DNA from: a virus
Taxonomy: Duplodnaviria > Caudoviricetes
Virus record (IMG/VR): IMGVR_UViG_3300008107_000072
Coordinates: 1,304-65,303 of that record
Strand: one strand, 5' to 3'
Length of the DNA stretch: 64,000 nucleotides
Shown: positions 4,137 to 32,257 of the stretch, in pieces
Layout of the letters: the number at the start of each line of letters is the position of its first letter
Position numbering within the stretch: the first letter of the stretch is position 1
Made by a program: the position numbers and the translations under genes
Notes under the pieces: generated by a model
Databases searched by the model: none
What the model was told of the DNA's origin: nothing
What the model saw: only the letters and a program-made list of their open reading frames with translations

Positions 4137-6060
4137 GTATACGGAGATTCCTGAAACATTTGAGGAGCTGGAATATGACTCTTCTGGTAATGCTATTTGG
4201 TCAGATGAGCAGTGGGAGTTTATTATGAGAGAGCTAACTCGCTGCCGTGATGGGCATTGGTTCTTAAACAACGGTCAACCAACATATATTACCGGGAAAT
4301 ACTACTACTTCCTAAACTACTTCACTCTTGAAAATGGAGAAAAGCCTCACTACAGGGATTGCGATAGGAGGTATTACCTATTTCTTGACTACTGCGAAAA
4401 GTCATCTAACATACTTGGAATCATACGCGTAAAGTCTCGACGTGAAGGTGCTACCTCACAAGCCTCGTCTAATCTTATTTATACAGCTACTACAACTGAG
4501 CAGGCTAAATGTGGTATCATATCAAAAACAGGGGATGATGCTAAATCCGTATTCAAAGAGATGGTTGTATACGCATTTCGTAACCTGCCACTATTCATGA
4601 AGCCAGACATCTCAGCAGGTGATGACCCTGAGAAGATACTTAGGTTCATGAAGCAGGTATCAAGAGTTAAGAAGAAACAGCAAACATCTATTAGAGAAAA
4701 GCCGGAAGGGTTAAACTCTCAGATAGATTTTAAAAACACAAAGCTAAACAGCTACGATTCTAAAAGAACTACAAGGCTACTTGTCGACGAGGCAGGTAAG
4801 TTTCCTACCGATGTTCCTATTCAACGCTATTGGCCTATTGTTAGAAAGACGCTAGAAAAAGGTAGTAGAAAGGTAGGATTTGCAGAGATGCCATCGACTG
4901 TAAACAAACTAAAAGACGGAGGAGCAGGATTTAAAACGCTATGGAACGAATCTAATCAGTTAACTCATAAGACAACTCCAACAGGTCTTTACAGATACTT
5001 TAAACCAGCATACGATGGGTACGAAGGGTTTATAGATAGATATGGAATGAGTATTATAGAGCCTCCAACCAAAGACCAAGAGAGATTCCTGCAAGAAACG
5101 ACTACGCTTACACTACAAGAGATACGATTAGGCGCTAAAGAATATCTTAGGCAGCGTATTGAAAAGATTGAAGATGATGAGATGAGGTTAGAAGAAAAGC
5201 GGATGATGCCATTTACAGAAGAAGAAGCATTTGCTGCGGACGATTCAGAGTCTTTCTTTAATACATCATTAATAAGAGAACAGCTTGAATACCTAAAAGA
5301 CAATAAACCATCTATGCGTAGAGTTACGTTTGGATGGGATGAGAAAAATAAAGTAGACTATAGAGATGACGCTAACGGTAAATGGCTGTTACTTAAACAA
5401 CCAAGATTTACTAATAGTGTAGTGTACGACGATTCTGGAAAGAAGCCTGCTAATACGCATCAGTATAAGATAGGAGTTGACCCTTTTGCATCAACAATTA
5501 TAGTAGGTAAAGGTTCAAACGGTGTTATCGTTGTATACGAGCAGTATGACCCTACAGACCCAGAGAATACAGGTATGCCAGTAGCTATATATGTAGGAAG
5601 GCCTAAAACTAAGAACCTATTTCATACAGAAGTATTATATGCCTGTCACTATTTCGGATGCAAGGCTACATACGAAAATGCAAATGATGACTACTTTGAA
5701 TGGTTTATAGATAAAGGACATAAGAACTTTATTACCAAAACTCCAAAATCTGTACTTGACCCTAACAGAAAATCTAAGAATGTTCAGACGTGGGGAGTAT
5801 CGCCAAAAGACCCTTTCTCATTAAATAAGCAACTTGAGCTTGCTCAATTTTGGGTTGACAACTATTCTCATAAGATGTTCTTTAAAGAAATATTTGAAGA
5901 TATGCTAGAGTATGACCATTTCAATAGAACAAAGTCGGATATTACTGTTGCATTTATGATTGCACTTGTAGCAGCGGCAGGAGACGTTAGAAATGTGTTG
6001 AAAGAAAAGAAGGACGTCGCACCACTTGTTCTAACATACGATATTAGCAACATCAGATAG
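4024..6060 (+). CDS. terL: Terminase large subunit
   Basis: Walker A-like KSRREGAT, Walker B LLVDEAGK, RNase H-like nuclease IGVDP...D; 678 aa, directly upstream of the portal. Confidence 0.92.
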   Translation: MQKESNVNLYGIEYELPKQPPAYKMEGIQYSKKEQYFRYTEIPETFEELEYDSSGNAIWSDEQWEFIMRELTRCRDGHWFLNNGQPTYITGKYYYFLNYFTLENGEKPHYRDCDRRYYLFLDYCEKSSNILGIIRVKSRREGATSQASSNLIYTATTTEQAKCGIISKTGDDAKSVFKEMVVYAFRNLPLFMKPDISAGDDPEKILRFMKQVSRVKKKQQTSIREKPEGLNSQIDFKNTKLNSYDSKRTTRLLVDEAGKFPTDVPIQRYWPIVRKTLEKGSRKVGFAEMPSTVNKLKDGGAGFKTLWNESNQLTHKTTPTGLYRYFKPAYDGYEGFIDRYGMSIIEPPTKDQERFLQETTTLTLQEIRLGAKEYLRQRIEKIEDDEMRLEEKRMMPFTEEEAFAADDSESFFNTSLIREQLEYLKDNKPSMRRVTFGWDEKNKVDYRDDANGKWLLLKQPRFTNSVVYDDSGKKPANTHQYKIGVDPFASTIIVGKGSNGVIVVYEQYDPTDPENTGMPVAIYVGRPKTKNLFHTEVLYACHYFGCKATYENANDDYFEWFIDKGHKNFITKTPKSVLDPNRKSKNVQTWGVSPKDPFSLNKQLELAQFWVDNYSHKMFFKEIFEDMLEYDHFNRTKSDITVAFMIALVAAAGDVRNVLKEKKDVAPLVLTYDISNIR

Positions 6061-10779: not shown

Positions 10780-12144
10780 ATGGCATACAATTCAGCGGCG
10801 GAGAAACCGTCAGCATTTGTCAATCCCGGCGCAGGTCTAACAAGAGGCATTGTTAGTGACCTGTCTATTCTTAAGCCTCAGTATTATCCTAAGTTCATCA
10901 GCAAGTATGGTGCTCAAAACTACACTATGCTTCTTGAAATGCTTGGATTCAAAGGTCAAGTAAAAAGTAACGTAATCCGTCACTGGGAAGACCTCGGAAA
11001 GCTTCACCAAGCTGTACAGGTTAACGCAAACGTAACTGGTGCAACTAACGGTTCTGCTGTTACTTTCACATTGAAGTCTGGTTCTCACTACGATAGCGGA
11101 ACTAAATCTCCTATCCGTGTAGGTGAAGTAGTTGAAATCGCTTCTACTGGTATTCAAGGTAAAGTAATCAGCGTTGATAAAACAAACGCAGGAGCTCACG
11201 AAGCTACTGTACGTCCTCTTAGCGCTACTCAACAATTTGAGTCTGCTACTCTTGATGGTCGTTTGGACGCTGACGAGTGGATTCTCTTCCGCGGACAAGC
11301 TGCGGTAGGTGAAGCTTCTTCTAAAGGAGATGCTTTGATTCCTCGCGTTGAAGAAGTGTTGAACTACGTTTCTGAAGTTCGCGAAGACTGGAGAGTTACT
11401 GACCGTGCTATGATTGAAGAAATCTGGTTTGGTGAGAACTATTCTTACAAAGGTCTTGAAGATGCTGTAAAGCGTTTCATGAACAACAAAGAGTTTACTC
11501 TTATGTTCGGTAACACTATTACTAACACTAACGCATCTGCTACTTCTAAGAATACAATCGGGCTGTTGCAACAGATTGAAAACCGTGGTACTGGCGTATC
11601 TTATAGCGCTGGAAACCTTGACCGTGCTAAGCTTCACGAAGTAACTCGTGCTCTTGACTTTAACGGAGGTTCTCAAGAGAATCACCTTCTTTCTGACGTG
11701 TTCTTGCGTCAAGAGTTGGATGACGAACTGTTCGACCTTTACGATGCAGGAGCTATCCTTTGGGGTACTGTAGGTGGTAGCAAAGAAGCTGCTGCTATGT
11801 ACGGATTCGGTTCTATCACAATGGATGGTTATACCTTCCACATTAAGAAGTACCTTCCGTTCTCTCCTGAAGCAGTTTACGGTGCTACTCCAACTGACCA
11901 TCAGTACAAGAACTACGGTATCGTTGTTCCTATGTCTCAAGGTCGTGACCCTCAAACTGGAGAGCGTTACAACTCTATCGAAATCACTTACAACAATGTG
12001 AATGGTAAAGACCTTCATATTTGGGAAACTGGTGCTTTCGCTAAGAGTCCTACAAGCGATACAGCTGAACTTAACGTACACCACCTGTGTTACGCAGGTC
12101 TGCGCGTGTTCGGTGCAAACCGCTTCGTACGCATCAGTGGTTAA
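10780..12144 (+). CDS. Major capsid protein
   Basis: 454 aa with strong highly-expressed codon bias, between scaffold and a strong terminator. C-terminal HHLCYAGLRVFGANRF resembles crAss-like MCPs. Confidence 0.85.
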   Translation: MAYNSAAEKPSAFVNPGAGLTRGIVSDLSILKPQYYPKFISKYGAQNYTMLLEMLGFKGQVKSNVIRHWEDLGKLHQAVQVNANVTGATNGSAVTFTLKSGSHYDSGTKSPIRVGEVVEIASTGIQGKVISVDKTNAGAHEATVRPLSATQQFESATLDGRLDADEWILFRGQAAVGEASSKGDALIPRVEEVLNYVSEVREDWRVTDRAMIEEIWFGENYSYKGLEDAVKRFMNNKEFTLMFGNTITNTNASATSKNTIGLLQQIENRGTGVSYSAGNLDRAKLHEVTRALDFNGGSQENHLLSDVFLRQELDDELFDLYDAGAILWGTVGGSKEAAAMYGFGSITMDGYTFHIKKYLPFSPEAVYGATPTDHQYKNYGIVVPMSQGRDPQTGERYNSIEITYNNVNGKDLHIWETGAFAKSPTSDTAELNVHHLCYAGLRVFGANRFVRISG

Positions 12145-21724: not shown

Positions 21725-24700
21725 ATGGCAGAACAGCAATTCCCCTTAAGTCAAGAAGAGTTAAACCAAGAAGAATTTAAGCCTGACGTGGCGAATATAT
21801 TAGGCTACGATAAGGATATGTTCAACACCAAAGACTCTTTTGGAGAACTACCAAAAATAAACCCACAAGAACAGATACAGCTATTTGACGATGTGCCTGT
21901 TGGGAAAGAGCAGAAAAATGCTTTATTAAATCTAAATACAATATCGGAAGAGTCACTAGAAAACGTATCTATTGACGCAGACGGCAACTACGATTTTGCC
22001 ACTAAAGTAGATGACGGTACTGGCATTATGATGAATCAGGAGTTTGAAGACCCTATTCTTGAAAAGAAAAAGAAAGAACTGATTGATGATGTCAATAAAA
22101 GGAAAGACCAGGAAATAGAGACTCTTAAAGTAGATGCAGACCAGAAGGTAGCATCAGGGGAACTTAAAAAAAGCCGCAGAGACAGATACATAGAGAAGAA
22201 TCAGAAGGAGATAGAGAAGAGGTATAAGAAAGAAGCGGAAGATGGGTATAAAAATATATATAAAGAAGCTAATGAAAATAAGGATAAACCCTTAGTTAAA
22301 TTTAAAAATAGATTAAATAAATATAGCGAAGGTATAAATAACTTATGGGGTGTTGTTCAGAAATTACAAGCTGGAGATGTTATATCTCAAGAGGACTATA
22401 TATCAAGCTACTCAGACCCTGAATTTCAGAGTAAATATTTAGAGGTTAAAGGCAGAGGTATTTCAAGTATTAATCAGTTCAAAAGCGAATACGAAAAAGG
22501 TGGGAATGTAAAGGCAGGAGATATTTACTTAGGCTACATTACAGGAAATACATATTTAACAACCGATGCTTTTAAGAAAAGTTCAAGACCTGTATATTTC
22601 GAGGCTACGGTAGACAAAAAAGGCAATAAGACTATAAAGTCTGTTAAGCCTGCATTTGTGCATCCTGTTACCAAGCAAGTTATAGGTGCTTATGTGCCCC
22701 CACAAAGGGGCTCCAGTGATGTTTTAATTAACCCTGCTTATACTGCTATAGCTGGTTATTCTGACCAGATAGCAGGAATTGATAAAGATGTAGAGAATGG
22801 CGTTATAGATGTATCGGAGGGGCAAAGAAGAAAAGATAATGCTAAATCTAGAAGAGCAGAATATCTAAAAAATAATATCGAAGCATTTGATGAGATTATG
22901 GCCAGCGACAAGTACAGCAAAGATGTAAAGATGGCTGTAATTGCTTCAATGTATCCTAATGAATTTAAGAAGAAATATACAGAGCTTTTAGAAAGTGGAG
23001 ATAATAATATAGCAGGTTCTATTATAGGATGGAGCATAGGTCTTCCTGCAAAGGTAATATCTACTGTAACAGGTGCAGCGGCTTCCGGTATAGACAATCT
23101 TGTTCAGGCATATCTTGGCTTGGATGATATTGAGTTCCCTATGGGAACGCTTCCATTGGAGCTTAAGAGAAATCCTGAGATAGCTTTGGAGATGGACAAT
23201 GTAGTAAAATCATCCTATAACAGAAGTTCTAAATATTTAACTAGTATAGAAGGGTTGGCTGAGCTTACTCACGCCGCAAAGGTTAATGTAAATAATAAAA
23301 AAATAGGAGCTGCGATTGCTTCAGCGCAACCATTTGTTGAAGAGTTGGACTCTGTTGTTAGAGAAATAAATAACGATAAGCAGGCTCTTGATATTAATAT
23401 AAAGAATTATTCAAATGACTTACTGGGTATATTTAACAAGAAAGGATATACGACAGCATTGAATAATGCGTATAAGTTGAACAGCGAGCTTATTAATAGC
23501 AAAGATGAAGATATAAGAAACGCTTACAGGTTTATAAGATTAAAGCAGCAGGTATTGAATCATGATGGTTCGGCAGACCAAGCATTATCTAAGTTGTCTA
23601 AGGAGGACATTGAGTTTATCAATACAGTAGGTAAGGATTTGACGCAAAATAGGATTCCATTACTAAATACGGTTGTCGGTAAAATAAATGAAGTAGCGGA
23701 TGCGTTTAATTCGGCGAAAAGTCTATATCCTACAAAAGAAGTACAAGAATATGAAAGAAAGAATAAAGTAAAGTTAGAATCAGATATTAAATCCTTTAAC
23801 GACAAGGTGACTCTTTTTACGGAAAGCGATGTAATGTCATCTGAATCATCTTCTGCGTTAGATATAATTCAAAATCTTGGTATGAAATATGACCAAGAAG
23901 CCGCTGGAAATGAATCATATACCTTTCCTTCGTTAGCAAGAATTGGGCATCAGATGCCGAAGAATTTGCTTGCTATGACGAATCCGGCTACTGGATTAGT
24001 AGTAGGGATGCTTGAAGGAGTTTCGGATATACTTAGAAGCGTTGAGTCTACGGCTAACCTTGTAGGGAATATCCAGTCTTTAGACTTTGATTTGCAAAAA
24101 ACATATATTTCTGCATCGCTGAATGAGTGGAAGCGCAATTTAGAGATTAAAACACCTGATACTGGTAACTACATCTATAACCTATCTAAGCAAATAGGTG
24201 GAGCTCTTCCTCAAATGGCAGCATTTGTAGCTTCGTTTGTGGCTGGCGGTCCTATTGGTGGTGCTTCTTATTTAACAGCTACGATGACTGGGGACAAGAT
24301 GAAAGAAGCTGCTAATGCAGGACTTGACCCTATAGAGCAAATGCTTTATACAGGATTGAGTATAGGTATCGAGTATGGTTCTGAACTAGTAACATCGGAA
24401 ACTGGATTAGCAGGAGTTAGAGGAGGTAAGTCGTTGCTTACTAAAGAGTTGCTTAAAAAGATTATGAATGTACAAACAAGGAAGGAGGCTCTTAAGGAGT
24501 ACGCTAGACTTGTTTGGAATACATCTAAGAACGTGGTTAAAAGCGGAGCGCTTGAATCTTTTGAAGAGCAGGTGTCCGATAAGTCAAACTACATATTACA
24601 GAATCTGTTTAATAACGTATTTGCCACTACATTCCAACCGTCAATGATGGGGCTTAAGGAGTCTCTTGACAACCTGCTTACAATGACGGCTACGGGAGGT

Positions 24701-27700
24701 ATATTTAAGCTTACTACTGCTATGTTTAACAGGCAAGTGCCAGTAGAAGCTAAAATGAAGACGAGACTGCAAGAGCAAGGAATGTCTGATAATAGAGCTA
24801 CTCTTGTAGCAGGTGTATCTTCTCCTAGTGGACTTAAGTCGTCGATAGACTTTGTAAATGCTGTAGAATCCGGTCAAATATCATCTCAGGATATAAACAC
24901 AGAGGAGTATGAGTATTTAAAGAATAAGCTCATTCCGCAAGCAATGCGTTTGCAGACAGAGATGTTTAATATGTCTGCTAATACAAACCTAAGTATACAG
25001 CAACGTTCTGTCGCCTTGTTCAACATGATGCAGATGAATGAGGTGAATGACAGGGTTGAAAGAGGGGAGATTTCTGCTCAAATGGGGCAGGCTGAAATAG
25101 TGCAACTTCAGGATAATATAAATAAAGCATTAAAAGATAAAGCGTTTGCAAATGAGCAGTTTGGTTTAGATGATACAGGTCTTGCTCAAAAGATTAAAGA
25201 ATACATGGGTGTAGCTGACATTGCTATCAATGAAGAAGGCGCAATGGATGCAAGAACTACCACACCTGCTGCCACACAAGAGGTAGCGCCTGCTACAGAT
25301 GTAGCAAGTAGTAAGCCTGCTATGGAGGCGAGAATGGTAGAAGCTGAAAATGATGCAAGAGCAGCTGCTTCAAGTGCTACTACTGCTGCTAATCCTATAG
25401 CAAATGAGCAACAAGCAGACGCTTCGGTGCAAGCCGAAATGGGGATGCCTGCTCAGGCTCCTTCGCAAGTTGCTGGTTTTGAAGTAGTTAACAAAGCGAC
25501 CCTTGCAGAAAGGCTCATTAACATAGTAGCATCTCCTATTAGAAAGAACAAGGCAAGAGGTAGCATGGAAAGAGAGATTAATAAAAATCCTGAGAAGGCT
25601 CTTTCTATGGAGATTTACAATACGAGAGCGCAGCTTGATATGGCTCAGGACAGGTATGATAATGCTATATCAATGAAACCTGCTGCTCCTGTTGAATTAG
25701 CCGAGATTAAATTGATTACAGATAGATTAAACAAGCTTGTAGCATTAAAAGATAATTACGCTAAAACAATACAATATGCCACTGAAATCAGCCAAGGGCT
25801 CCAGCAAGAAATCGCTCAACGACGCAATCTCTTACAACCTACGGGAACTGAGCAAGGACAACCTCAAGTCGGGCAAAGAGAAGGGGGCGTCGGGCAAACC
25901 GCGCAGCAAGCAGCAGATGCTCGCAATCGCGATTTCGTCAGCCAAGCGCAAGCCGCAGTCCAAGAAATAACAGCTGTAACAGAAAAGCCACCTATCCTAA
26001 ATAGGTATCTATCAGGTATGCAGCCTGGGCAGGAGGTTCAGTTAATGGATGAAATAGCAGCACAAGTAGTTACTAATGAAGCTGCTGCGGTACGTCAATT
26101 TGGACAACCCGTCGTTGACAGGGTAAAACAATACGTTGCTGATACAAACTTTACTACAGACCTTCCTATTGTAAGAGATGCTATGGTTCGCCAAGCGGAG
26201 CAGAGCGTTGGTCAGGCAGAGCAGGAAGCTAATACAGTAATAGCAAGACAGAATCAGAATACATCTAAGCAGCATAAGAAAGCGGTAGTTAAACTCGTAG
26301 AAAGACTTAAGCAAGCCTTCCCGAATGTAAAGGTATTTATGGATAAGAAAGGGTTTGAGGCTGCTATACAAGACCCTGCTGCAAGAGAGTTGATGACAAA
26401 GGGTGGTGTGGTGTATGGTAGAGTATTAAATGGAAATGTATATCTGAATCCTGACTTTTCAAACTACAACACACCGCTGCATGAGTTTGGGCATCTATGG
26501 TTGAATGTGGCTAAGGAGGCATCTCCGAACATATACAACCGAGGGTTGGAGCTGATTCGTGATAGTGAATACGTTACACGTCTTGAAGGAGACCCTTTGT
26601 ATAATGGGTTAACCAAAGAGGAGCTTGAGGAGGAGGCGTTGGCTACTGCTATTGGAGATAGAGGTGAGCAGCTTGTATTAGAATCGCAGAAGAAAGGGTT
26701 TAGAGGATGGATGACAAGATTGCTACGCAAGATGGCTCAGTATGTAGGCATTATGAATATGTCTAGCAGCGAGCTTCGTAGTTTAGACCTTGACGCTTAT
26801 TTGAATATGGTGAATGCCAGCTTGCTTGCTGGTCAGCCATTGACCAGAGAGTCTATCAGAGCAAGTGGTTTTCAGATAATAGGAGAAAACGCACAGTTAT
26901 CTAAAAATATTATAAATAATCTTGGTGTTGCAAAAGATATGGAGGCATTAGGAAAAGATGCCTTAAATATAAGAATAGCTACGGGATGGGAAAAAGGAGC
27001 AGACAATAAATGGAGATACGAGATAATAGATGGCACATACAAAAGAAACTTATTTACTATTATTAAAGAGGCAACCGTAGGTCTTACAATAGGAGACGTA
27101 TATGATAATAAAGAATTATTCAGAGCATATCCTAAATTAAAATCTCTTCCATTTAAAGTAGAAGCGCTAAAGATTGGAGATAATGGGTACTATGATGGTT
27201 CTGGAATAGTGATGAATAAAACACTTGTTACTGATGACGAATTTTCATCAAGAGATAATATTATAAAGTCTACATTGCTTCACGAATTACAGCACGCTAT
27301 ACAAGACATAGAAGGATTCTCTATTGGTGGAAATGAATATTTTAAAGAATATACAAAATTAGCTGGAGAAGTTGAAGCCAGGAATGTTTCAAAGAGGATG
27401 AATATGACTCTTGGCGAAAGAAGAATGAATTTGCTGCAAGAAACAGAAGACGTAGCAAGAGAAGACCAAGTACTTTTCTTTAATAATTTTGCTTCACAAT
27501 TCATGGCTAAGATGGACAATAGTGTTAAAAACGCATTGACCAGAGTAGCACAGGAGCGTTTCAACTTAGCTATTGCAAAAGGAATGGATTTAGAAGCAGC
27601 TAGGGCAGAAGCGTTCACTAAACTTACAGAGTTCGTTATAGGTAATTACCTTAACAAATCAAACTATGCTGAAATATTAGATGGGCTTTCCGGCATAGTA

Positions 27701-30700
27701 TTGAACGTATCTGAGTCTGAAAGACAAAGAGTTATAGAGCAGAAGAAGACTGAAAAGTTAAATCAGCTATTTAGATTCTCTGAGATTCAGGCAATCGCAA
27801 CGATGGCAAACGAGGAGGCTTTAAGACTTGCACAAGGCAAGATTAAAGCTTCCGATGCCATCACGCAGGTTACTGAAAAAGTGAAGGCTGAAATAGAAGC
27901 TCTGTTTGCTGGCAATAAAGCTCCGGCAGGAGTATCTTGGATTAATGCAATGGCTCTTGCTCCCTCTATTGCTGCTGATGCAGTAATGGCTGCCTTCCCT
28001 GCTACAAACAGAAAGTCTTTGGTGAATGAGGATATTGTTATTATGACTACTTCTCAATTTGTTCGTAAGATTATATCTGATAAGATACGTGCTATAAAAG
28101 ATGTAGAGAAGCGTGCAGAAAAAGATATAAAAGCTACAGAGAAGCGTACAGAAAAAGCTATAAAAGATGCAGAAAAAGCTACGGAAAAAGCTATAAAAGC
28201 TACTGAAAAATCTACAAAAAAAGATATAAAAAGTAGAACAGAGTCTATAATAGAAGCTGTAAAAGAGATATTCAAGCAGATGTCAGATACTTACGGTAAG
28301 GGATTAAAACTATCTCCTTCTAAAGTAAATGCCATCATTGCCGAGATAGATGCAAATGTTTTCAGTCGGGAAGATATAATGTCAGCAACTGAGGAAGCGG
28401 CTAACGCTATATCTAACATCATTGAGAAGGAGTATAGAAAGAAACTTATTGATGAGTCTGTTGCTCTCTTGGATAAGCTAAAAGCTAAAACAGCTAAAGC
28501 TAAGTATACCGGGGATATGCTCAATAAGGCGATGACTCTTTTGGGTATAAATACTACCGATTGGAAAAATAGTGATGCTACTCTTGAAGATATATCTCTG
28601 TTCAATACAGCAATAAATAAGATTTTAGCAGGAGATGTTTCTCAGTTTGACTTTGCTATGTCTAAGGCAGGAGATATTCAGGTTGAAAATAATACTAAGA
28701 TTAGCAGTGAGTTTGACAGCCTCATGGGTAAGATGAATAGGATGATTGCTAAGGCAGGAAATCTTGATACTTCTGATTACGCATCTATAGCAGCTCTTTA
28801 TAATGCAATGATAGATGTTAAGGAGCGTAAGGGTGATTTGTCGGCTTTTACTGCTGAGCAGTTAGCTAAGCTAGAGCAGAAGTACTCTGATGTTATAGCT
28901 TCTATACCTGGCTCATTAACAATAGCTAAAATTGTAGAACAGAAAGAACGTGAAATAACTAATGACCTTAAGACGAAGGCTGATTTGCTAGCGTCTGAAT
29001 TAATATCAGAATCATCTGATATTCGGATGAAGATTAAAAATCCGCTTAGCTTACATAAGGCAATGCTGTTTTCATCATTTATACTTCAAGGTGATTATCT
29101 TGACAGCTTAGATACTAATGGTAAGCTTGCTCTTATTAACGCATTAGACAATATAATAATATACGGGAACTACAACTACGATGCTTATGTTCAGGATATA
29201 AAAGCAAGGAAGTATTACTTAAAAACTAATACTATTGATGCCGTAATGAATATGGCAAGAAGAAGAAGGACAACCTTAGCGTCTCCAGGTCATACAGGTC
29301 TTATTTTTAACAAGCTAAAAAACTTCTTAAGAATATTTACAGACGTAGAAGGTACTACTCCTTCTGCTCAGCTCATAGCAGACAACTTTGACCTATTAAG
29401 GCTTCAATCAATGGACGTAGAGCTGTTTAGCGGTTATGATGATTTCAATATGGGATTTTTGGAGAGAGATATATTCGCTCCAATGGCTTCAGGGGTAGAC
29501 GGTGCTGTAAACAGAACGCAGGCTAAGTTGCAGAACTTGCAAGATGCGATGCTGCTATTAGGCGACCAGTCTAATAGAAACGTTGTTAAAAAAGCAATTA
29601 AAGGAGTTAGAGAGCAGTATGGATTAGGCTCAGACCTTAATATGAGAAGGCTGTTTGCTATGTTTAAGAGAGGCTCAAACGAAAATATGTACGTTGAGAT
29701 TTCTACTCGCATGGCAACTATTATTGCCCATCAAATAGACCATATCTCAAACCTTAAAGAAGGTCAACAGGCTGACGATATGATTCTGAAAAGAAACATA
29801 TTAGATGGTATGGCTGAAAAGGAAAAAGAGGGTAAAACGATGGCAGATAGGTACGGTAAACTTGGTGGACTTAGCACGCTTACTGGCAAGTACGATGACC
29901 TTCTTGACGCAATAGCTTATGCCGCATTAACAAATAACGGAACAGAAACCCTTGCAGGAATAAGTCAAGAGGATTTACTAAATAAGTTAACTCCTTCTCA
30001 GAAAAAAGCGATTGTATCTTGGAGAGAGTTTATAAACGGTAACAAAGATTTGGTAGAGTCAGCGATGATTGTTAGGGGTAATATGAAGGCTCTGATTAAG
30101 AACTACTTCCCTAGAATGTTATCTTCATCTCAAGATGTAAGCAGCATAACCGATTATGATTCATACATGAATAGCCAGTCGGAAAACGTAGGGCTTAATG
30201 ATGGACAGATAAGTAGTCGTATTGGAGATAAAGGCAAGATAAGCCTTAATGGAAACAAGGTTCTTTTAAATAACCTTAAAGCACTTCATCTTCTAAACGA
30301 AATGCAGCCTTATGTCGACCAGATTAAAGCTGTTGGAGAAGCGGTTGAAGAGCTTAAGACATTAGCGTCTAAGGAAACAAATGAAGAGAAGAAAAGAGAA
30401 TATAACTTCGCAGCCGCATACGCAGAAGGTATTTCTATTACAATTAAAAACAGGCTAGATAATTCATTGCTTAATGGAGACAAGTCTTTGAATAACAGTT
30501 ACAACTTTGCTGCTAAAGCAATAGGTGTTACTCAAAAGTTTGCTGCTAAGCTTTGGTTAGTCGGTACTATCAGGCAGGTACTATCCGATTATCCTGCTAA
30601 CATAATAAAGACTTCTGCCGCTTTAGCTTCTGCTAATAAGTCTGCTAAGAGAGCGCCTAGTCTGCAAGCTTGGAGATTACTATTCCCAAGTAAGTCTGCT

Positions 30701-32257
30701 GTAAGAACAGAGCAGGGTAAGTTTGCATGGGAGGATTACGTTAAGATAGCAGAGATTACAGGTTCTCCTGTATATCGCACGGTTTCAATGTATTCCGACA
30801 ATTTCCTATACGATTACACTAAAACTCCTGCTGAGCTTCAAAGAGAGCAGAAGATTATGTCTTGGCAGGATATGGCTGTAAAGAAGCAGGCATGGATGGA
30901 AAGGTTTGAGAATGCTTTTGTAAAACTTACTGGTGAAGTATTCGACCATAAGGCTTTTGAAGATGAAAGAGGGACTTACAGAGCCATGTTCTATGAGGCT
31001 GTTCAGAAAGCGTCAAGTGCTGCCGATTCTACTGTTGATAGACAGTTTGGTCTACCTTCATTTGCTAGGCAGCCGCTAAGGACTAATATATTCTTTCCAT
31101 TCATAGGAAGACCTTTAAGGTATCTTATCAATACGTACTGGCCTTCGAAAACGGCTAATAACATCCTTACAATAAGTAAGACAAGTTGGATAGGCACTAT
31201 AACAGGATTCATGCAAGGCTATCCTGCCGTACAGTTCTCTTTATTCAGGAACTACATGAAGCTCGCATTTTCCGGCACAAGTGGCCTATCTACGAAAGAG
31301 AGGGCAGGATATATGACACAAGCGTTAACGGAGTCGTTTATCCCAACATTTGCTTATGCTATGTCTAGGAAGTTCTTTGGTGCATTGTTCGTAGGTGCTG
31401 CAATGGCTGCTAGAAATGCTGCTGGGGATGAAGATGAAGAAAAGAAGATAAGGGAGGATATGGACAATCAAGACTGGTGGAATAGGATGCTTACTTCATT
31501 TAAGTTGCAGTTCAGAGAGACAGAAGATGCGGTTATGGATAATCTAATAAACTCATTAACTGCTAACGTAGTAGACCCTAATACAACCTACTTATTAAGG
31601 ATGGCAGCAGGTCTGGTTATTTTCCAGTACTGGAAGAAAGAGGCGATTATAGCAATGGATAAAAGAGAGATTGAAACGCCTACAGGGAAGAGGATGATGA
31701 CTAAGGAAGAGAGAAAGAAAATGGGTAAGGCTATTAAAGAAAAGGAGAATAGAATATGGGATATGTTTAACGTAAGGCCTTTGGAAATATATGGAGGTAA
31801 AGACTACGAATATGCGTTAACTAAGCGTGACGTATCTTGGGCTGCCGGAAGACAAACACAAGGGTGGGAGGAGCTGTTTGAGTCTATTGGAGGATTTGGA
31901 GAGGTAGCTAAAACAGCTAGGTCTTTTGTAACAATCAAAGAGCTAACGGAGTCTGATAACAAAAATCTAGACAAGAAAGAGCTTTTAGTAGCGTCACTAA
32001 TGAAGGCTTACGCTTTAATATTTTCAAATGTTATGATTGGCGGCAAATACGGATGGGCTGCAAGTATGTTTACAGGTGACGCCAACAAGATAGCTAACAC
32101 GATACTTAAAGACTTAGAAAACGAAAACAGAGAGTTTTTAAAATCTCAAAAGAAAAGAAGTAGCGGAGGAAGCTCAGGTTCTAGAGGCGGTAGAAGGAGA
32201 GGTGGAAGCGGACGCGGTGGTGGCGGCAGAGGTGGTGGAGGAGGAAGAGGTGGATGA
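21725..32257 (+). CDS. Giant virion cargo/polyvalent protein with two zincin motifs, an LPD23-like segment and an RGG tail
   Basis: 3510 aa. HEFGH (~26480), ATGWEKGADNKWRYEI...LLHELQHAIQ..EGF...AGEVEARN (~26975-27390), C-terminal RGG repeats. Confidence 0.85.
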   Translation: MAEQQFPLSQEELNQEEFKPDVANILGYDKDMFNTKDSFGELPKINPQEQIQLFDDVPVGKEQKNALLNLNTISEESLENVSIDADGNYDFATKVDDGTGIMMNQEFEDPILEKKKKELIDDVNKRKDQEIETLKVDADQKVASGELKKSRRDRYIEKNQKEIEKRYKKEAEDGYKNIYKEANENKDKPLVKFKNRLNKYSEGINNLWGVVQKLQAGDVISQEDYISSYSDPEFQSKYLEVKGRGISSINQFKSEYEKGGNVKAGDIYLGYITGNTYLTTDAFKKSSRPVYFEATVDKKGNKTIKSVKPAFVHPVTKQVIGAYVPPQRGSSDVLINPAYTAIAGYSDQIAGIDKDVENGVIDVSEGQRRKDNAKSRRAEYLKNNIEAFDEIMASDKYSKDVKMAVIASMYPNEFKKKYTELLESGDNNIAGSIIGWSIGLPAKVISTVTGAAASGIDNLVQAYLGLDDIEFPMGTLPLELKRNPEIALEMDNVVKSSYNRSSKYLTSIEGLAELTHAAKVNVNNKKIGAAIASAQPFVEELDSVVREINNDKQALDINIKNYSNDLLGIFNKKGYTTALNNAYKLNSELINSKDEDIRNAYRFIRLKQQVLNHDGSADQALSKLSKEDIEFINTVGKDLTQNRIPLLNTVVGKINEVADAFNSAKSLYPTKEVQEYERKNKVKLESDIKSFNDKVTLFTESDVMSSESSSALDIIQNLGMKYDQEAAGNESYTFPSLARIGHQMPKNLLAMTNPATGLVVGMLEGVSDILRSVESTANLVGNIQSLDFDLQKTYISASLNEWKRNLEIKTPDTGNYIYNLSKQIGGALPQMAAFVASFVAGGPIGGASYLTATMTGDKMKEAANAGLDPIEQMLYTGLSIGIEYGSELVTSETGLAGVRGGKSLLTKELLKKIMNVQTRKEALKEYARLVWNTSKNVVKSGALESFEEQVSDKSNYILQNLFNNVFATTFQPSMMGLKESLDNLLTMTATGGIFKLTTAMFNRQVPVEAKMKTRLQEQGMSDNRATLVAGVSSPSGLKSSIDFVNAVESGQISSQDINTEEYEYLKNKLIPQAMRLQTEMFNMSANTNLSIQQRSVALFNMMQMNEVNDRVERGEISAQMGQAEIVQLQDNINKALKDKAFANEQFGLDDTGLAQKIKEYMGVADIAINEEGAMDARTTTPAATQEVAPATDVASSKPAMEARMVEAENDARAAASSATTAANPIANEQQADASVQAEMGMPAQAPSQVAGFEVVNKATLAERLINIVASPIRKNKARGSMEREINKNPEKALSMEIYNTRAQLDMAQDRYDNAISMKPAAPVELAEIKLITDRLNKLVALKDNYAKTIQYATEISQGLQQEIAQRRNLLQPTGTEQGQPQVGQREGGVGQTAQQAADARNRDFVSQAQAAVQEITAVTEKPPILNRYLSGMQPGQEVQLMDEIAAQVVTNEAAAVRQFGQPVVDRVKQYVADTNFTTDLPIVRDAMVRQAEQSVGQAEQEANTVIARQNQNTSKQHKKAVVKLVERLKQAFPNVKVFMDKKGFEAAIQDPAARELMTKGGVVYGRVLNGNVYLNPDFSNYNTPLHEFGHLWLNVAKEASPNIYNRGLELIRDSEYVTRLEGDPLYNGLTKEELEEEALATAIGDRGEQLVLESQKKGFRGWMTRLLRKMAQYVGIMNMSSSELRSLDLDAYLNMVNASLLAGQPLTRESIRASGFQIIGENAQLSKNIINNLGVAKDMEALGKDALNIRIATGWEKGADNKWRYEIIDGTYKRNLFTIIKEATVGLTIGDVYDNKELFRAYPKLKSLPFKVEALKIGDNGYYDGSGIVMNKTLVTDDEFSSRDNIIKSTLLHELQHAIQDIEGFSIGGNEYFKEYTKLAGEVEARNVSKRMNMTLGERRMNLLQETEDVAREDQVLFFNNFASQFMAKMDNSVKNALTRVAQERFNLAIAKGMDLEAARAEAFTKLTEFVIGNYLNKSNYAEILDGLSGIVLNVSESERQRVIEQKKTEKLNQLFRFSEIQAIATMANEEALRLAQGKIKASDAITQVTEKVKAEIEALFAGNKAPAGVSWINAMALAPSIAADAVMAAFPATNRKSLVNEDIVIMTTSQFVRKIISDKIRAIKDVEKRAEKDIKATEKRTEKAIKDAEKATEKAIKATEKSTKKDIKSRTESIIEAVKEIFKQMSDTYGKGLKLSPSKVNAIIAEIDANVFSREDIMSATEEAANAISNIIEKEYRKKLIDESVALLDKLKAKTAKAKYTGDMLNKAMTLLGINTTDWKNSDATLEDISLFNTAINKILAGDVSQFDFAMSKAGDIQVENNTKISSEFDSLMGKMNRMIAKAGNLDTSDYASIAALYNAMIDVKERKGDLSAFTAEQLAKLEQKYSDVIASIPGSLTIAKIVEQKEREITNDLKTKADLLASELISESSDIRMKIKNPLSLHKAMLFSSFILQGDYLDSLDTNGKLALINALDNIIIYGNYNYDAYVQDIKARKYYLKTNTIDAVMNMARRRRTTLASPGHTGLIFNKLKNFLRIFTDVEGTTPSAQLIADNFDLLRLQSMDVELFSGYDDFNMGFLERDIFAPMASGVDGAVNRTQAKLQNLQDAMLLLGDQSNRNVVKKAIKGVREQYGLGSDLNMRRLFAMFKRGSNENMYVEISTRMATIIAHQIDHISNLKEGQQADDMILKRNILDGMAEKEKEGKTMADRYGKLGGLSTLTGKYDDLLDAIAYAALTNNGTETLAGISQEDLLNKLTPSQKKAIVSWREFINGNKDLVESAMIVRGNMKALIKNYFPRMLSSSQDVSSITDYDSYMNSQSENVGLNDGQISSRIGDKGKISLNGNKVLLNNLKALHLLNEMQPYVDQIKAVGEAVEELKTLASKETNEEKKREYNFAAAYAEGISITIKNRLDNSLLNGDKSLNNSYNFAAKAIGVTQKFAAKLWLVGTIRQVLSDYPANIIKTSAALASANKSAKRAPSLQAWRLLFPSKSAVRTEQGKFAWEDYVKIAEITGSPVYRTVSMYSDNFLYDYTKTPAELQREQKIMSWQDMAVKKQAWMERFENAFVKLTGEVFDHKAFEDERGTYRAMFYEAVQKASSAADSTVDRQFGLPSFARQPLRTNIFFPFIGRPLRYLINTYWPSKTANNILTISKTSWIGTITGFMQGYPAVQFSLFRNYMKLAFSGTSGLSTKERAGYMTQALTESFIPTFAYAMSRKFFGALFVGAAMAARNAAGDEDEEKKIREDMDNQDWWNRMLTSFKLQFRETEDAVMDNLINSLTANVVDPNTTYLLRMAAGLVIFQYWKKEAIIAMDKREIETPTGKRMMTKEERKKMGKAIKEKENRIWDMFNVRPLEIYGGKDYEYALTKRDVSWAAGRQTQGWEELFESIGGFGEVAKTARSFVTIKELTESDNKNLDKKELLVASLMKAYALIFSNVMIGGKYGWAASMFTGDANKIANTILKDLENENREFLKSQKKRSSGGSSGSRGGRRRGGSGRGGGGRGGGGGRGG
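25776..25970 (+). CDS. Overprinted small basic protein nested in the giant gene (different frame)
   Basis: MPLKSAKGSSKK...ISYNLREL...GKPRSKQQMLAIAISSAK resembles the 'MPLKKG.S..AIS.NI.E....KP.KQAVAIALS' small phage proteins; A-rich leader TAAAACAATACAAT-ATG. Confidence 0.65.
   Translation: MPLKSAKGSSKKSLNDAISYNLRELSKDNLKSGKEKGASGKPRSKQQMLAIAISSAKRKPQSKK
28094..28231 (+). repeat. 33-bp (11-aa) coding tandem repeat, about 4 copies
   Basis: IKDVEKRAEKD / IKATEKRTEKA / IKDAEKATEKA / IKATEKSTKKD. Confidence 0.85.

Follow-up and report, generated by a model that had tools for sequence, protein, structure and literature searches.

Can a short reading frame buried out of frame in a very long phage gene be a gene in its own right, and, if so, which of the two readings is the older? 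This question is raised by a locus in virus record IMGVR_UViG_3300008107_000072 of IMG/VR (Duplodnaviria; Caudoviricetes), of which we analysed 64,000 of the 65,303 bases (hereafter the window; the completeness estimate for the record is 94%). Open reading frame (ORF) listing and translation place a giant gene of 3510 codons at 21725..32257 (+) of the window and, inside it, a small ORF at 25776..25970 (+), with an ATG start and 64 codons followed by TAA. The small ORF begins one base 3' of the giant frame (25776-21725 = 4051), i.e. in its +1 frame, and lies wholly within the larger ORF on the same strand, forming an internal out-of-frame overlap. As far as sequences can tell, it is very probably a genuine and ancient gene of the DUF6496 family, lying wholly inside the gene of a giant polyvalent virion protein and one base out of frame with it.

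The original prediction, made from the DNA letters alone, described a 64-residue same-strand ORF in a different frame of the giant gene, preceded by an A-rich leader with A at -3 and situated where the host frame is Q-rich and the guanine plus cytosine (GC) content rises locally. All of these features were recovered: the peptide matches the translation, 10 of the 20 bases before the ATG are A, and A is found at -3. The product is small and basic, with a mass of 6.9 kDa, an isoelectric point (pI) of 10.6 and 17 K+R versus 4 D+E. The host-frame reading of the overlap (25775..25972, +) is a linker of 66 codons, rich in Q, A, G, E and T and acidic (pI 4.8), with 15 Q in its 66 residues (YATEISQGLQQE...QAAVQEIT); it connects the N-terminal 1350 residues of the giant with the C-terminal 2094. 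The GC content reaches its maximum of 0.535 at 25800-25999, compared with 0.37 at 25600-25799 and approximately 0.31-0.45 across most of the giant gene.

The length of the nested ORF was rejected as an argument for a gene. When the codons of the giant gene were shuffled synonymously, 206 of 1000 shuffles contained a same-strand ORF of at least 64 codons with an ATG start in an alternative frame, and in 82 of 1000 it lay over this very site; the Q/A/G/E-rich host peptide is inherently stop-poor in the other frames. These shuffles speak for a chance ORF in a stop-poor, low-complexity stretch, an explanation that is left with practically no probability by the homology, selection and structure evidence given below. 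It is further contradicted by the contrast with a second alternative-frame ATG ORF of the giant gene (24468..24647, +, 59 codons), used as an internal negative control, which is unconserved: tblastn against all retrieved loci found no convincing relative for it, only two weak matches with E values of 0.27 and 0.62. The ORF at 25776..25970 exceeds chance by its homology and substitution pattern, not by its length.

The nested peptide passes the gathering score of the Pfam family DUF6496 (PF20106; 26.1 versus 24 bits, E 1.1e-5), with a match spanning peptide residues 12-59 and positions 4-50 of the 58 in the profile; in a six-frame search of the record the score was 24.3 bits. A first scan of viral contigs with the peptide returned 15 loci of 45-84% identity, all with MPL starts, and 11 of these 15 phage family members match DUF6496 at E<=0.01. 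When a family profile was searched against 1.84 billion representative proteins, 158 clusters were obtained at E<=1e-3, including 37 with E values no higher than 1e-10. Among the 150 cluster matches listed, nearly all are 40-100 aa in length, none is a giant protein, and many align from residue 1. The likeness to free-standing small basic proteins, for which the original prediction had proposed a profile search as a check, was therefore borne out: the window peptide scores above the gathering threshold of a family whose members are mostly free-standing and of the same size class. The phage branch departs from DUF6496 at its N-terminus, which is conserved within the branch as MPLK..., and many of its members also carry an inserted Gly/Lys loop of 10 residues. 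Neither DUF6496 nor a nested pair such as this one was found described in the literature searched, with supplements and most subscription journals outside its scope.

A profile-guided scan of viral contigs identified 278 stretches encoding a relative, whereas a word-index search of 5.8 billion proteins yielded only 4 relatives. This difference fits gene callers skipping nested copies, as had been predicted. The search of prokaryote genomes gave only 4 matches, all on contigs of metagenome-assembled genomes (MAGs), with no host assignment possible. A segment of the giant gene used as a query retrieved 4 loci that matched only query residues 752-993, and these were not used.

The best 80 of the 278 encoding stretches were kept as loci, and 79 of them were usable. 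The small gene is nested in 45, inside open frames of 760 to more than 3037 codons, many of which run off the locus, and free-standing in the other 34. In every nested locus the long frame starts one base earlier than the small gene (the s-1 frame), and in none is it the s+1 frame. The scan of relatives suggested by the original prediction thus uncovered 45 MPL-starting nested ORFs with the same frame relation, none broken by stops, alongside stand-alone homologues; an absence of such homologues and a broken frame in relatives, which would have spoken against a gene, were not observed. Two additional nested copies were found on MAG contigs. L105 and L106, contigs in MAGs labelled Candidatus Fokinia solitaria and Omnitrophota, carry the gene nested in host frames of 1001 and 1713 codons, and are probably phage contigs within MAG bins.

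The giant genes themselves have diverged strongly. Single-linkage clustering of BLAST matches puts 39 of 43 C-terminal parts, that of the window included, into one component and 35 of 46 N-terminal parts into another, which makes common descent of the arrangement plausible. Nested copies group together in a tree of 69 small proteins, where the nested state needs 5 changes versus approximately 20 for shuffled labels, and a single origin of nesting is compatible with the well-supported branches. The identity of the small proteins correlates with that of the giant flanks (Spearman 0.42-0.52, for pairs that are not independent).

Within these diverged giants the small gene stands out as an island of conservation. 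Its protein identity exceeds that of the flanks in all 315 pairs of N parts and in 274 of the 276 pairs of C parts, with a median of approximately 70% versus 29-36%; for the window and its closest relative the values are 84% and 30-35%. When the nested loci were compared with the 10.5-kb gene of the window by blastn, 35 of the 45 were similar over the nested ORF only, 4 also elsewhere and 6 nowhere. In freshwater metagenomes, contigs from other phages resemble the window over approximately 25771-25975 alone, the sequences on both sides being unlike, and in two near-identical strains, with 1 and 4 differences within the overlap, both frames are still open. A blastn search with positions 24000-28000 of the window found no match in GenBank phages, with the low-complexity filter on and hence no proof of absence.

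An island that is the sole nucleotide-conserved part of a 10.5-kb gene in 35 of 45 loci, and unusual in composition, could also be a nucleic-acid element, such as a packaging signal, a promoter, an RNA structure or a recombination hotspot, with the ORF as a by-product. The pattern of substitutions makes this extremely improbable, since it tracks the codon periodicity of the small frame: column entropy at its codon positions 1, 2 and 3 is 0.76, 0.53 and 1.04 bits, a profile typical of coding sequence when read in the small frame and the opposite of it when read in the host frame, and the proportion of synonymous differences (pS) is 0.34 versus 0.09 for nonsynonymous ones (pN). Moreover, the Pfam family and free-standing homologues keep the same protein despite a quite different nucleotide composition, with GC contents of 0.28-0.56, and the small frame is folded confidently by AlphaFold2.

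To a protein-coding small gene the substitution rates add a clear asymmetry between the two frames. In the first set, the Nei-Gojobori ratio of nonsynonymous to synonymous rates (dN/dS) was 1.0-2.5 for the host frame in 36 of 36 nested pairs, and 0.04-0.51 for the small frame in the 33 pairs that were computable. In the larger set, 21 non-overlapping nested pairs gave a pooled pN/pS of 0.26 for the small frame versus 2.17 for the host frame, with the small frame lower in 21/21. An OLGenie-style count, in which substitutions are conditioned on the other frame and bootstrap intervals are attached, gave a dNN/dSN of 0.26 (0.19-0.33) for the small frame and a dNN/dNS of 1.45 (1.13-1.94) for the host frame. 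Together, these ratios and conditioned counts indicate that the residues of the host frame are not conserved as such. The check for constraint in both frames that had been proposed for this locus thus revealed purifying selection on the small frame only, the host frame being merely kept open.

That openness is itself far from neutral. No stop occurs in the s-1 frame in the window and the 8 nested copies counted, versus 5-8 in each of the 7 free copies counted, and the frame is open across the small ORF in 45/45 nested loci. When 9 nested proteins were redrawn synonymously with the codon usage of their own giants, the host frame was open in approximately 0 of 5000 trials. At the third codon position of the small gene, T makes up 1% in the 45 nested copies versus 27% in 24 free copies; it is purged because a T before AA, AG or GA creates a stop in the giant frame. 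The lack of stops, the resampling result and the loss of third-position T all point to selection for read-through. The purge also explains the GC spike, the small ORF being richer in GC than the giant flanks in 45/45 loci (medians 0.51 versus 0.35), so that the GC rise is a consequence of the open giant frame and not a mark of foreign origin. The comparisons among relatives show both readings to be kept by selection, the small one as a protein and the giant one, to judge from its substitutions, as an unconstrained, stop-free, Q/E/G-rich spacer. The dual-coding region proposed originally is in this sense real, supported by homology, by selection on the small frame and by the maintained openness of the host frame.

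In the window, the antisense ORF over the nested stretch has only 43 codons. In relatives L010-L013 and L054-L062, two antisense frames over this stretch have 0 stops, and minus-strand ORFs of 105-183 codons cover it in L010, L012 and L013. These open antisense frames look like a by-product of the T-purged, GC-rich composition.

The open host frame bears on whether the giant is one protein at all. Its N and C parts might be made separately, in which case the small gene would be an ordinary gene lying between them and the openness of the host frame would have no function; in relative L025 the host ORF indeed ends 65 codons beyond the small gene and is followed by separate genes, and the amino acids of the host frame are unconstrained and give no confident fold. 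However, the host frame is the most stop-prone one, as the 5-8 stops of the free copies attest, yet it contains none in the window and the 45 nested loci, a state that synonymous redrawing practically never reached and for which third-position T has been driven down to 1%. In addition, Pfam domains lie downstream in the same frame: LPD23 in the window (giant residues 1720-1769; 26882..27031, +; PF18838, E 1.9e-12, 47.2 bits with a cut-off of 27), and LPD38 in relatives L010 and L014. The LPD23 match marks the giant gene as a relative of polyvalent proteins and places real domains downstream of the overlap in its own frame. Separate products are thus very improbable indeed, and a single giant protein read through the small gene is preferred.

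The presumed translation-initiation region of the nested gene (25746..25775, +), which lies within the giant coding frame, opens with an in-frame TAA at 25746-25748 that closes the small frame 9 codons before the ATG. The leader is A-rich, G-poor and unstructured, with A at -3 and -2 and without a Shine-Dalgarno motif; the minimum free energy of positions -30..+21 is -1.2 kcal/mol, whereas 200 windows drawn at random from the giant gene average -6.8. The same signature recurs in the relatives. In 45/45 nested loci the start window is less structured than its background (the median share of equally unstructured random windows is 0.03), the A-richness of the leader is in the top tenth of its own gene in 29 of 45, and A occupies -3 in 78% and -2 in 91% of the nested loci. 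Genes elsewhere in this phage start in a similar way, with a Shine-Dalgarno-like motif in only 2 of 40 cases and A-rich leaders. A at -3 and low structure are initiation determinants in Flavobacterium johnsoniae, and a Shine-Dalgarno-poor, A-rich leader pattern is described for Bacteroidia, according to the available part of PMC6847099. The small protein would therefore start at its own AUG on the late mRNA of the giant gene, by Shine-Dalgarno-independent initiation of the Bacteroidia type that may rely on the A-rich, unstructured leader with A at -3. The expectation that the nested gene keeps its own initiation is in line with these observations.

Instead of starting independently, the small frame might be reached by ribosomes that translate the giant gene and shift +1 upstream, giving a truncated N-terminal fragment with a basic DUF6496 tail as its alternative C-terminus, in the manner of the G/GT products of phage tail chaperones. 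The A-rich leaders, in some loci with potentially slippery A-runs of 6-8, would suit such a shift, and the family tolerates an N-terminal extension, since the DUF6496 domain is fused in frame ('GGK-MPLKK') in 5 loci of one sub-clade. However, a small-frame stop lies 1-20 codons (median 5) upstream of the ATG in all 44 nested loci counted, leaving only a very short shift window and little room for a frameshift product, and a shared slippery heptamer is not visible in the 45 leaders. The ATG with MP(L/I) is kept in 45/45 nested copies, most free-standing homologues begin with MPL at residue 1, and the start region bears the unstructured A-rich signature of real starts. What marks a G/GT-type product, namely no independent start and a frame open back to a conserved slippery site, is not found here. 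A frameshift origin of the small protein is accordingly very unlikely, and initiation at its own AUG remains the favoured explanation.

A different start signal was seen in one free-standing group. L071-L100, whose products begin 'M(P)LGKDVSKNM...', are higher-GC loci in which the small gene lies beside genes for a 2OG-Fe(II) oxygenase, a ferredoxin and a DNA methyltransferase, with a clear Shine-Dalgarno-like 'TAAGGAGAA...ATG' upstream, in contrast to the A-rich leaders of the nested clade. These leaders and loci suggest hosts outside Bacteroidia.

Which reading came first can be judged from phylogenetic distribution, by which the widely distributed frame of an overlap is the ancestral one (PMC8227390, in its available part). 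The small gene is widespread, with a Pfam family and 158 clusters, so that its frame is the ancestral one and the linker of the giant, shifted +2, is the de novo one. The original prediction of an overprinted small gene is thus upheld as regards absorption into a linker, but the word overprinted is misleading, because the nested frame is the older and the linker the new reading.

How the older gene may have been absorbed is indicated by the free-standing loci. In 8 of them the ATG follows 1-4 nt after the end of an upstream gene ('TAAnATG') that is read in exactly the s-1 frame, so that loss of the stop of that gene would begin the read-through observed in the nested loci. In the route envisaged, an upstream gene ending in 'TAAnATG' would have lost its stop, so that its reading continued across the small gene in the -1 frame; synonymous recoding of the small gene would then have cleared this frame of stops, and the extended reading would subsequently have been fused with downstream polyvalent modules. 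L025 (3116-5386) looks like a part-way state: its host ORF has 756 codons, with the small ORF at 5001-5189, and neither of the separate genes that follow, of 165 and 948 codons, matched the C part of another giant in BLAST. An upstream gene in the same frame would, upon stop loss, be expected to give an in-frame fusion, and this is what is found in a sister sub-clade (L109, L110 and L112-L114), where unrelated upstream ORFs of 138-314 aa end in the small domain, joined to them in frame, and the junction 'GGK-MPLKK' is conserved in all 5 loci with the Met retained. Their close relatives L115-L118 are free-standing, with a stop 4 codons upstream. The family thus seems prone to capture by upstream genes, and the stop-loss read-through route is a plausible one that is consistent with the sequence data. 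Tracing a gene-fusion origin by BLAST was tried and rejected: the upstream genes of L016-L020 and the downstream genes of L025 have no match to the N or C parts of the giants, and only the downstream gene of L018 and the upstream gene of L066 match C parts.

Structure prediction agrees with the asymmetry between the frames. AlphaFold2 models the small frame (78-row alignment) with a predicted local distance difference test (pLDDT) score of 89.1 and a predicted template modelling (pTM) score of 0.72, as a helix at residues 11-29, a Gly/Lys loop and a second helix at 45-56. For the host-frame peptide (45-row alignment) the scores are 58.2 and 0.20, and such a poor model fits a flexible spacer. 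As for function, the small protein is tentatively modelled as a nucleic-acid-binding accessory that might be expressed late with the virion genes, or as a late accessory associated with the virion, although either is doubtful. The ribosomal protein bS21 is similar in size and charge and is carried by phages of such hosts. A divergent bS21 was not indicated by Pfam (no match at E<=1) or among 50 VIA rows (no bS21 chain), and this identity is unsupported. A sequence profile search of the PDB gave weak coiled-coil-like matches only, in columns contributed by longer family members, and the ESM Atlas gave viral hypothetical clusters only, one of which has DUF6496 on 11% of its members.

Several observations weigh against the explanation preferred here, its tentative functional part included. 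In tblastn searches, 3 family members found nothing in 50,697 phage records, in which the low-complexity filter may hide the gene, and the gene is absent from all four related GenBank records that were searched whole by profile (Cellulophaga phi19:3, Flavobacterium elemoE 6-9C, Maribacter Panino and one Caudoviricetes sp.); by these GenBank searches, no cultured phage appears to carry it. No RNA run containing the stretch was listed. The near-identical strains are mixed in the overlap, with 1+1 changes that leave the small-frame amino acids unaltered and 2 amino-acid replacements within the variable N-terminal third of the small protein. With 60 residues, the tree cannot fix the number of origins of nesting, and BLAST gave no link between the 433-aa upstream genes of the free-standing loci L016-L020 and the N parts of the giants. 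The two AlphaFold2 runs differ in alignment depth (78 versus 45 rows), Foldseek found no match in the PDB at E<=1e-3, and a wide VIA search gave a best Z of 5.0, to generic helical hairpins. The best PHROGs match had an E value of 0.39, PADLOC gave 0 matches, and NCBIfam gave one sub-threshold match among 6 proteins. Finally, of 12 free-standing loci examined, roughly half have packaging or head genes next to the small gene and the others DNA-metabolism or auxiliary metabolic genes, and such very different modules make a virion-associated reading weak.

Internal out-of-frame overlaps are known from phages, for example Rz/Rz1 of phage lambda, and in the classic cases the short nested gene is taken as the de novo one. 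Mycobacteriophage Ms6 lysA is reportedly a two-product gene with an internal in-frame start; it resembles the present case in having a second initiation site within a phage gene, as do the sister sub-clade fusions that keep their Met, but the two products of the window share no residues and their frames differ. The D/E pair of phiX174 is a further internal out-of-frame overlap, and each overlap is considered to comprise one ancestral and one de novo frame, the de novo proteins usually being without remote homologues (PMC8227390, available part). Like lambda Rz/Rz1 and phiX174 D/E, the pair described here consists of a short gene wholly within a longer same-strand gene, each with its own start and both kept. 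Unlike them, it has a widespread nested gene, a new reading that consists of a 66-codon linker within the long gene, and a long partner of more than 3000 codons whose overlapped part is free of amino-acid constraint. New with respect to the classic nested genes of phages are therefore the polarity, a host gene of this size and kind, the complete absence of amino-acid constraint on the host reading and the spread over dozens of uncultivated phages.

The giant gene lies downstream of genes for the large terminase, the portal and several virion structural proteins, and is followed by tail-fibre-like genes and an endolysin, with a replication/recombination block on the opposite strand (PHROG matches). 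Its product is presumed, from this position after the terminase-portal-structural block, to be a virion or cargo protein of the polyvalent type. LPD23 and LPD38 are domains of polyvalent proteins (Iyer et al. 2017; PMC5512222, available part), and the host gene has what characterises such proteins, being giant, carrying an LPD-type domain and adjoining virion genes. It is like them a giant multi-module protein beside virion genes, and differs in that their metallopeptidase (MPTase) domain is not detected by Pfam here, where only HExxH motifs are visible. There are two of these motifs in the middle third of the giant translation, with no peptidase family from Pfam at E<=1. The C-terminus of the giant is a Gly/Arg/Ser-rich tail (...SSGGSSGSRGGRRRGGSGRGGGG..., window 32140..32254). 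In the portion of PMC5512222 that is available, the words 'overlapping' and 'frameshift' do not occur and a gene nested in a polyvalent linker is not described. The large terminase is approximately 28% identical to terminases of Cellulophaga phages (Pachyviridae), Flavobacterium 'elemo' phages and Maribacter phage Panino, and near-identical DNA is present in lake and freshwater metagenomes from several studies; the phage of the window is uncultivated, lives in fresh water and is a distant relative of Flavobacteriia phages. Elsewhere in the window, an antisense ORF of 415 codons (10837..12084, -) covers nearly all of a virion structural gene of 454 codons (10780..12144, +; phrog_13704), and may be of compositional origin.

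What the finding would mean for these phages may be put as 'reverse overprinting', a possibility that we offer as speculative: a widespread clade of freshwater phages may have built or extended its giant protein by reading through an essential small gene that was already present and clearing 5-8 stops by recoding its third positions, whereby the pair became locked and the small protein might act as a partner of the giant. The hosts of the clade would probably be Bacteroidota, the small protein could, for instance, be co-packaged and bind nucleic acid or serve as a cofactor of assembly or ejection, and the dosage of small and giant proteins would be set on one mRNA by internal initiation competing with elongating ribosomes. 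For annotation, a strongly conserved family is invisible to gene callers wherever it is nested. For the evolution of overlaps, this is an unusually clean natural case, in which the polarity is clear, the nested frame being the older, the cost of overlapping can be read directly from the purge of third-position T and the accompanying GC spike, and free-standing, in-frame-fused and out-of-frame-nested states can be compared within one family. In Bacteroidia, the locus could be used to test how initiation proceeds inside a translated ORF without a Shine-Dalgarno motif. It also suggests that polyvalent proteins can grow when stops between neighbouring genes are lost, a gene that lies in the way being swallowed and supplying, in its new reading, a disordered linker.

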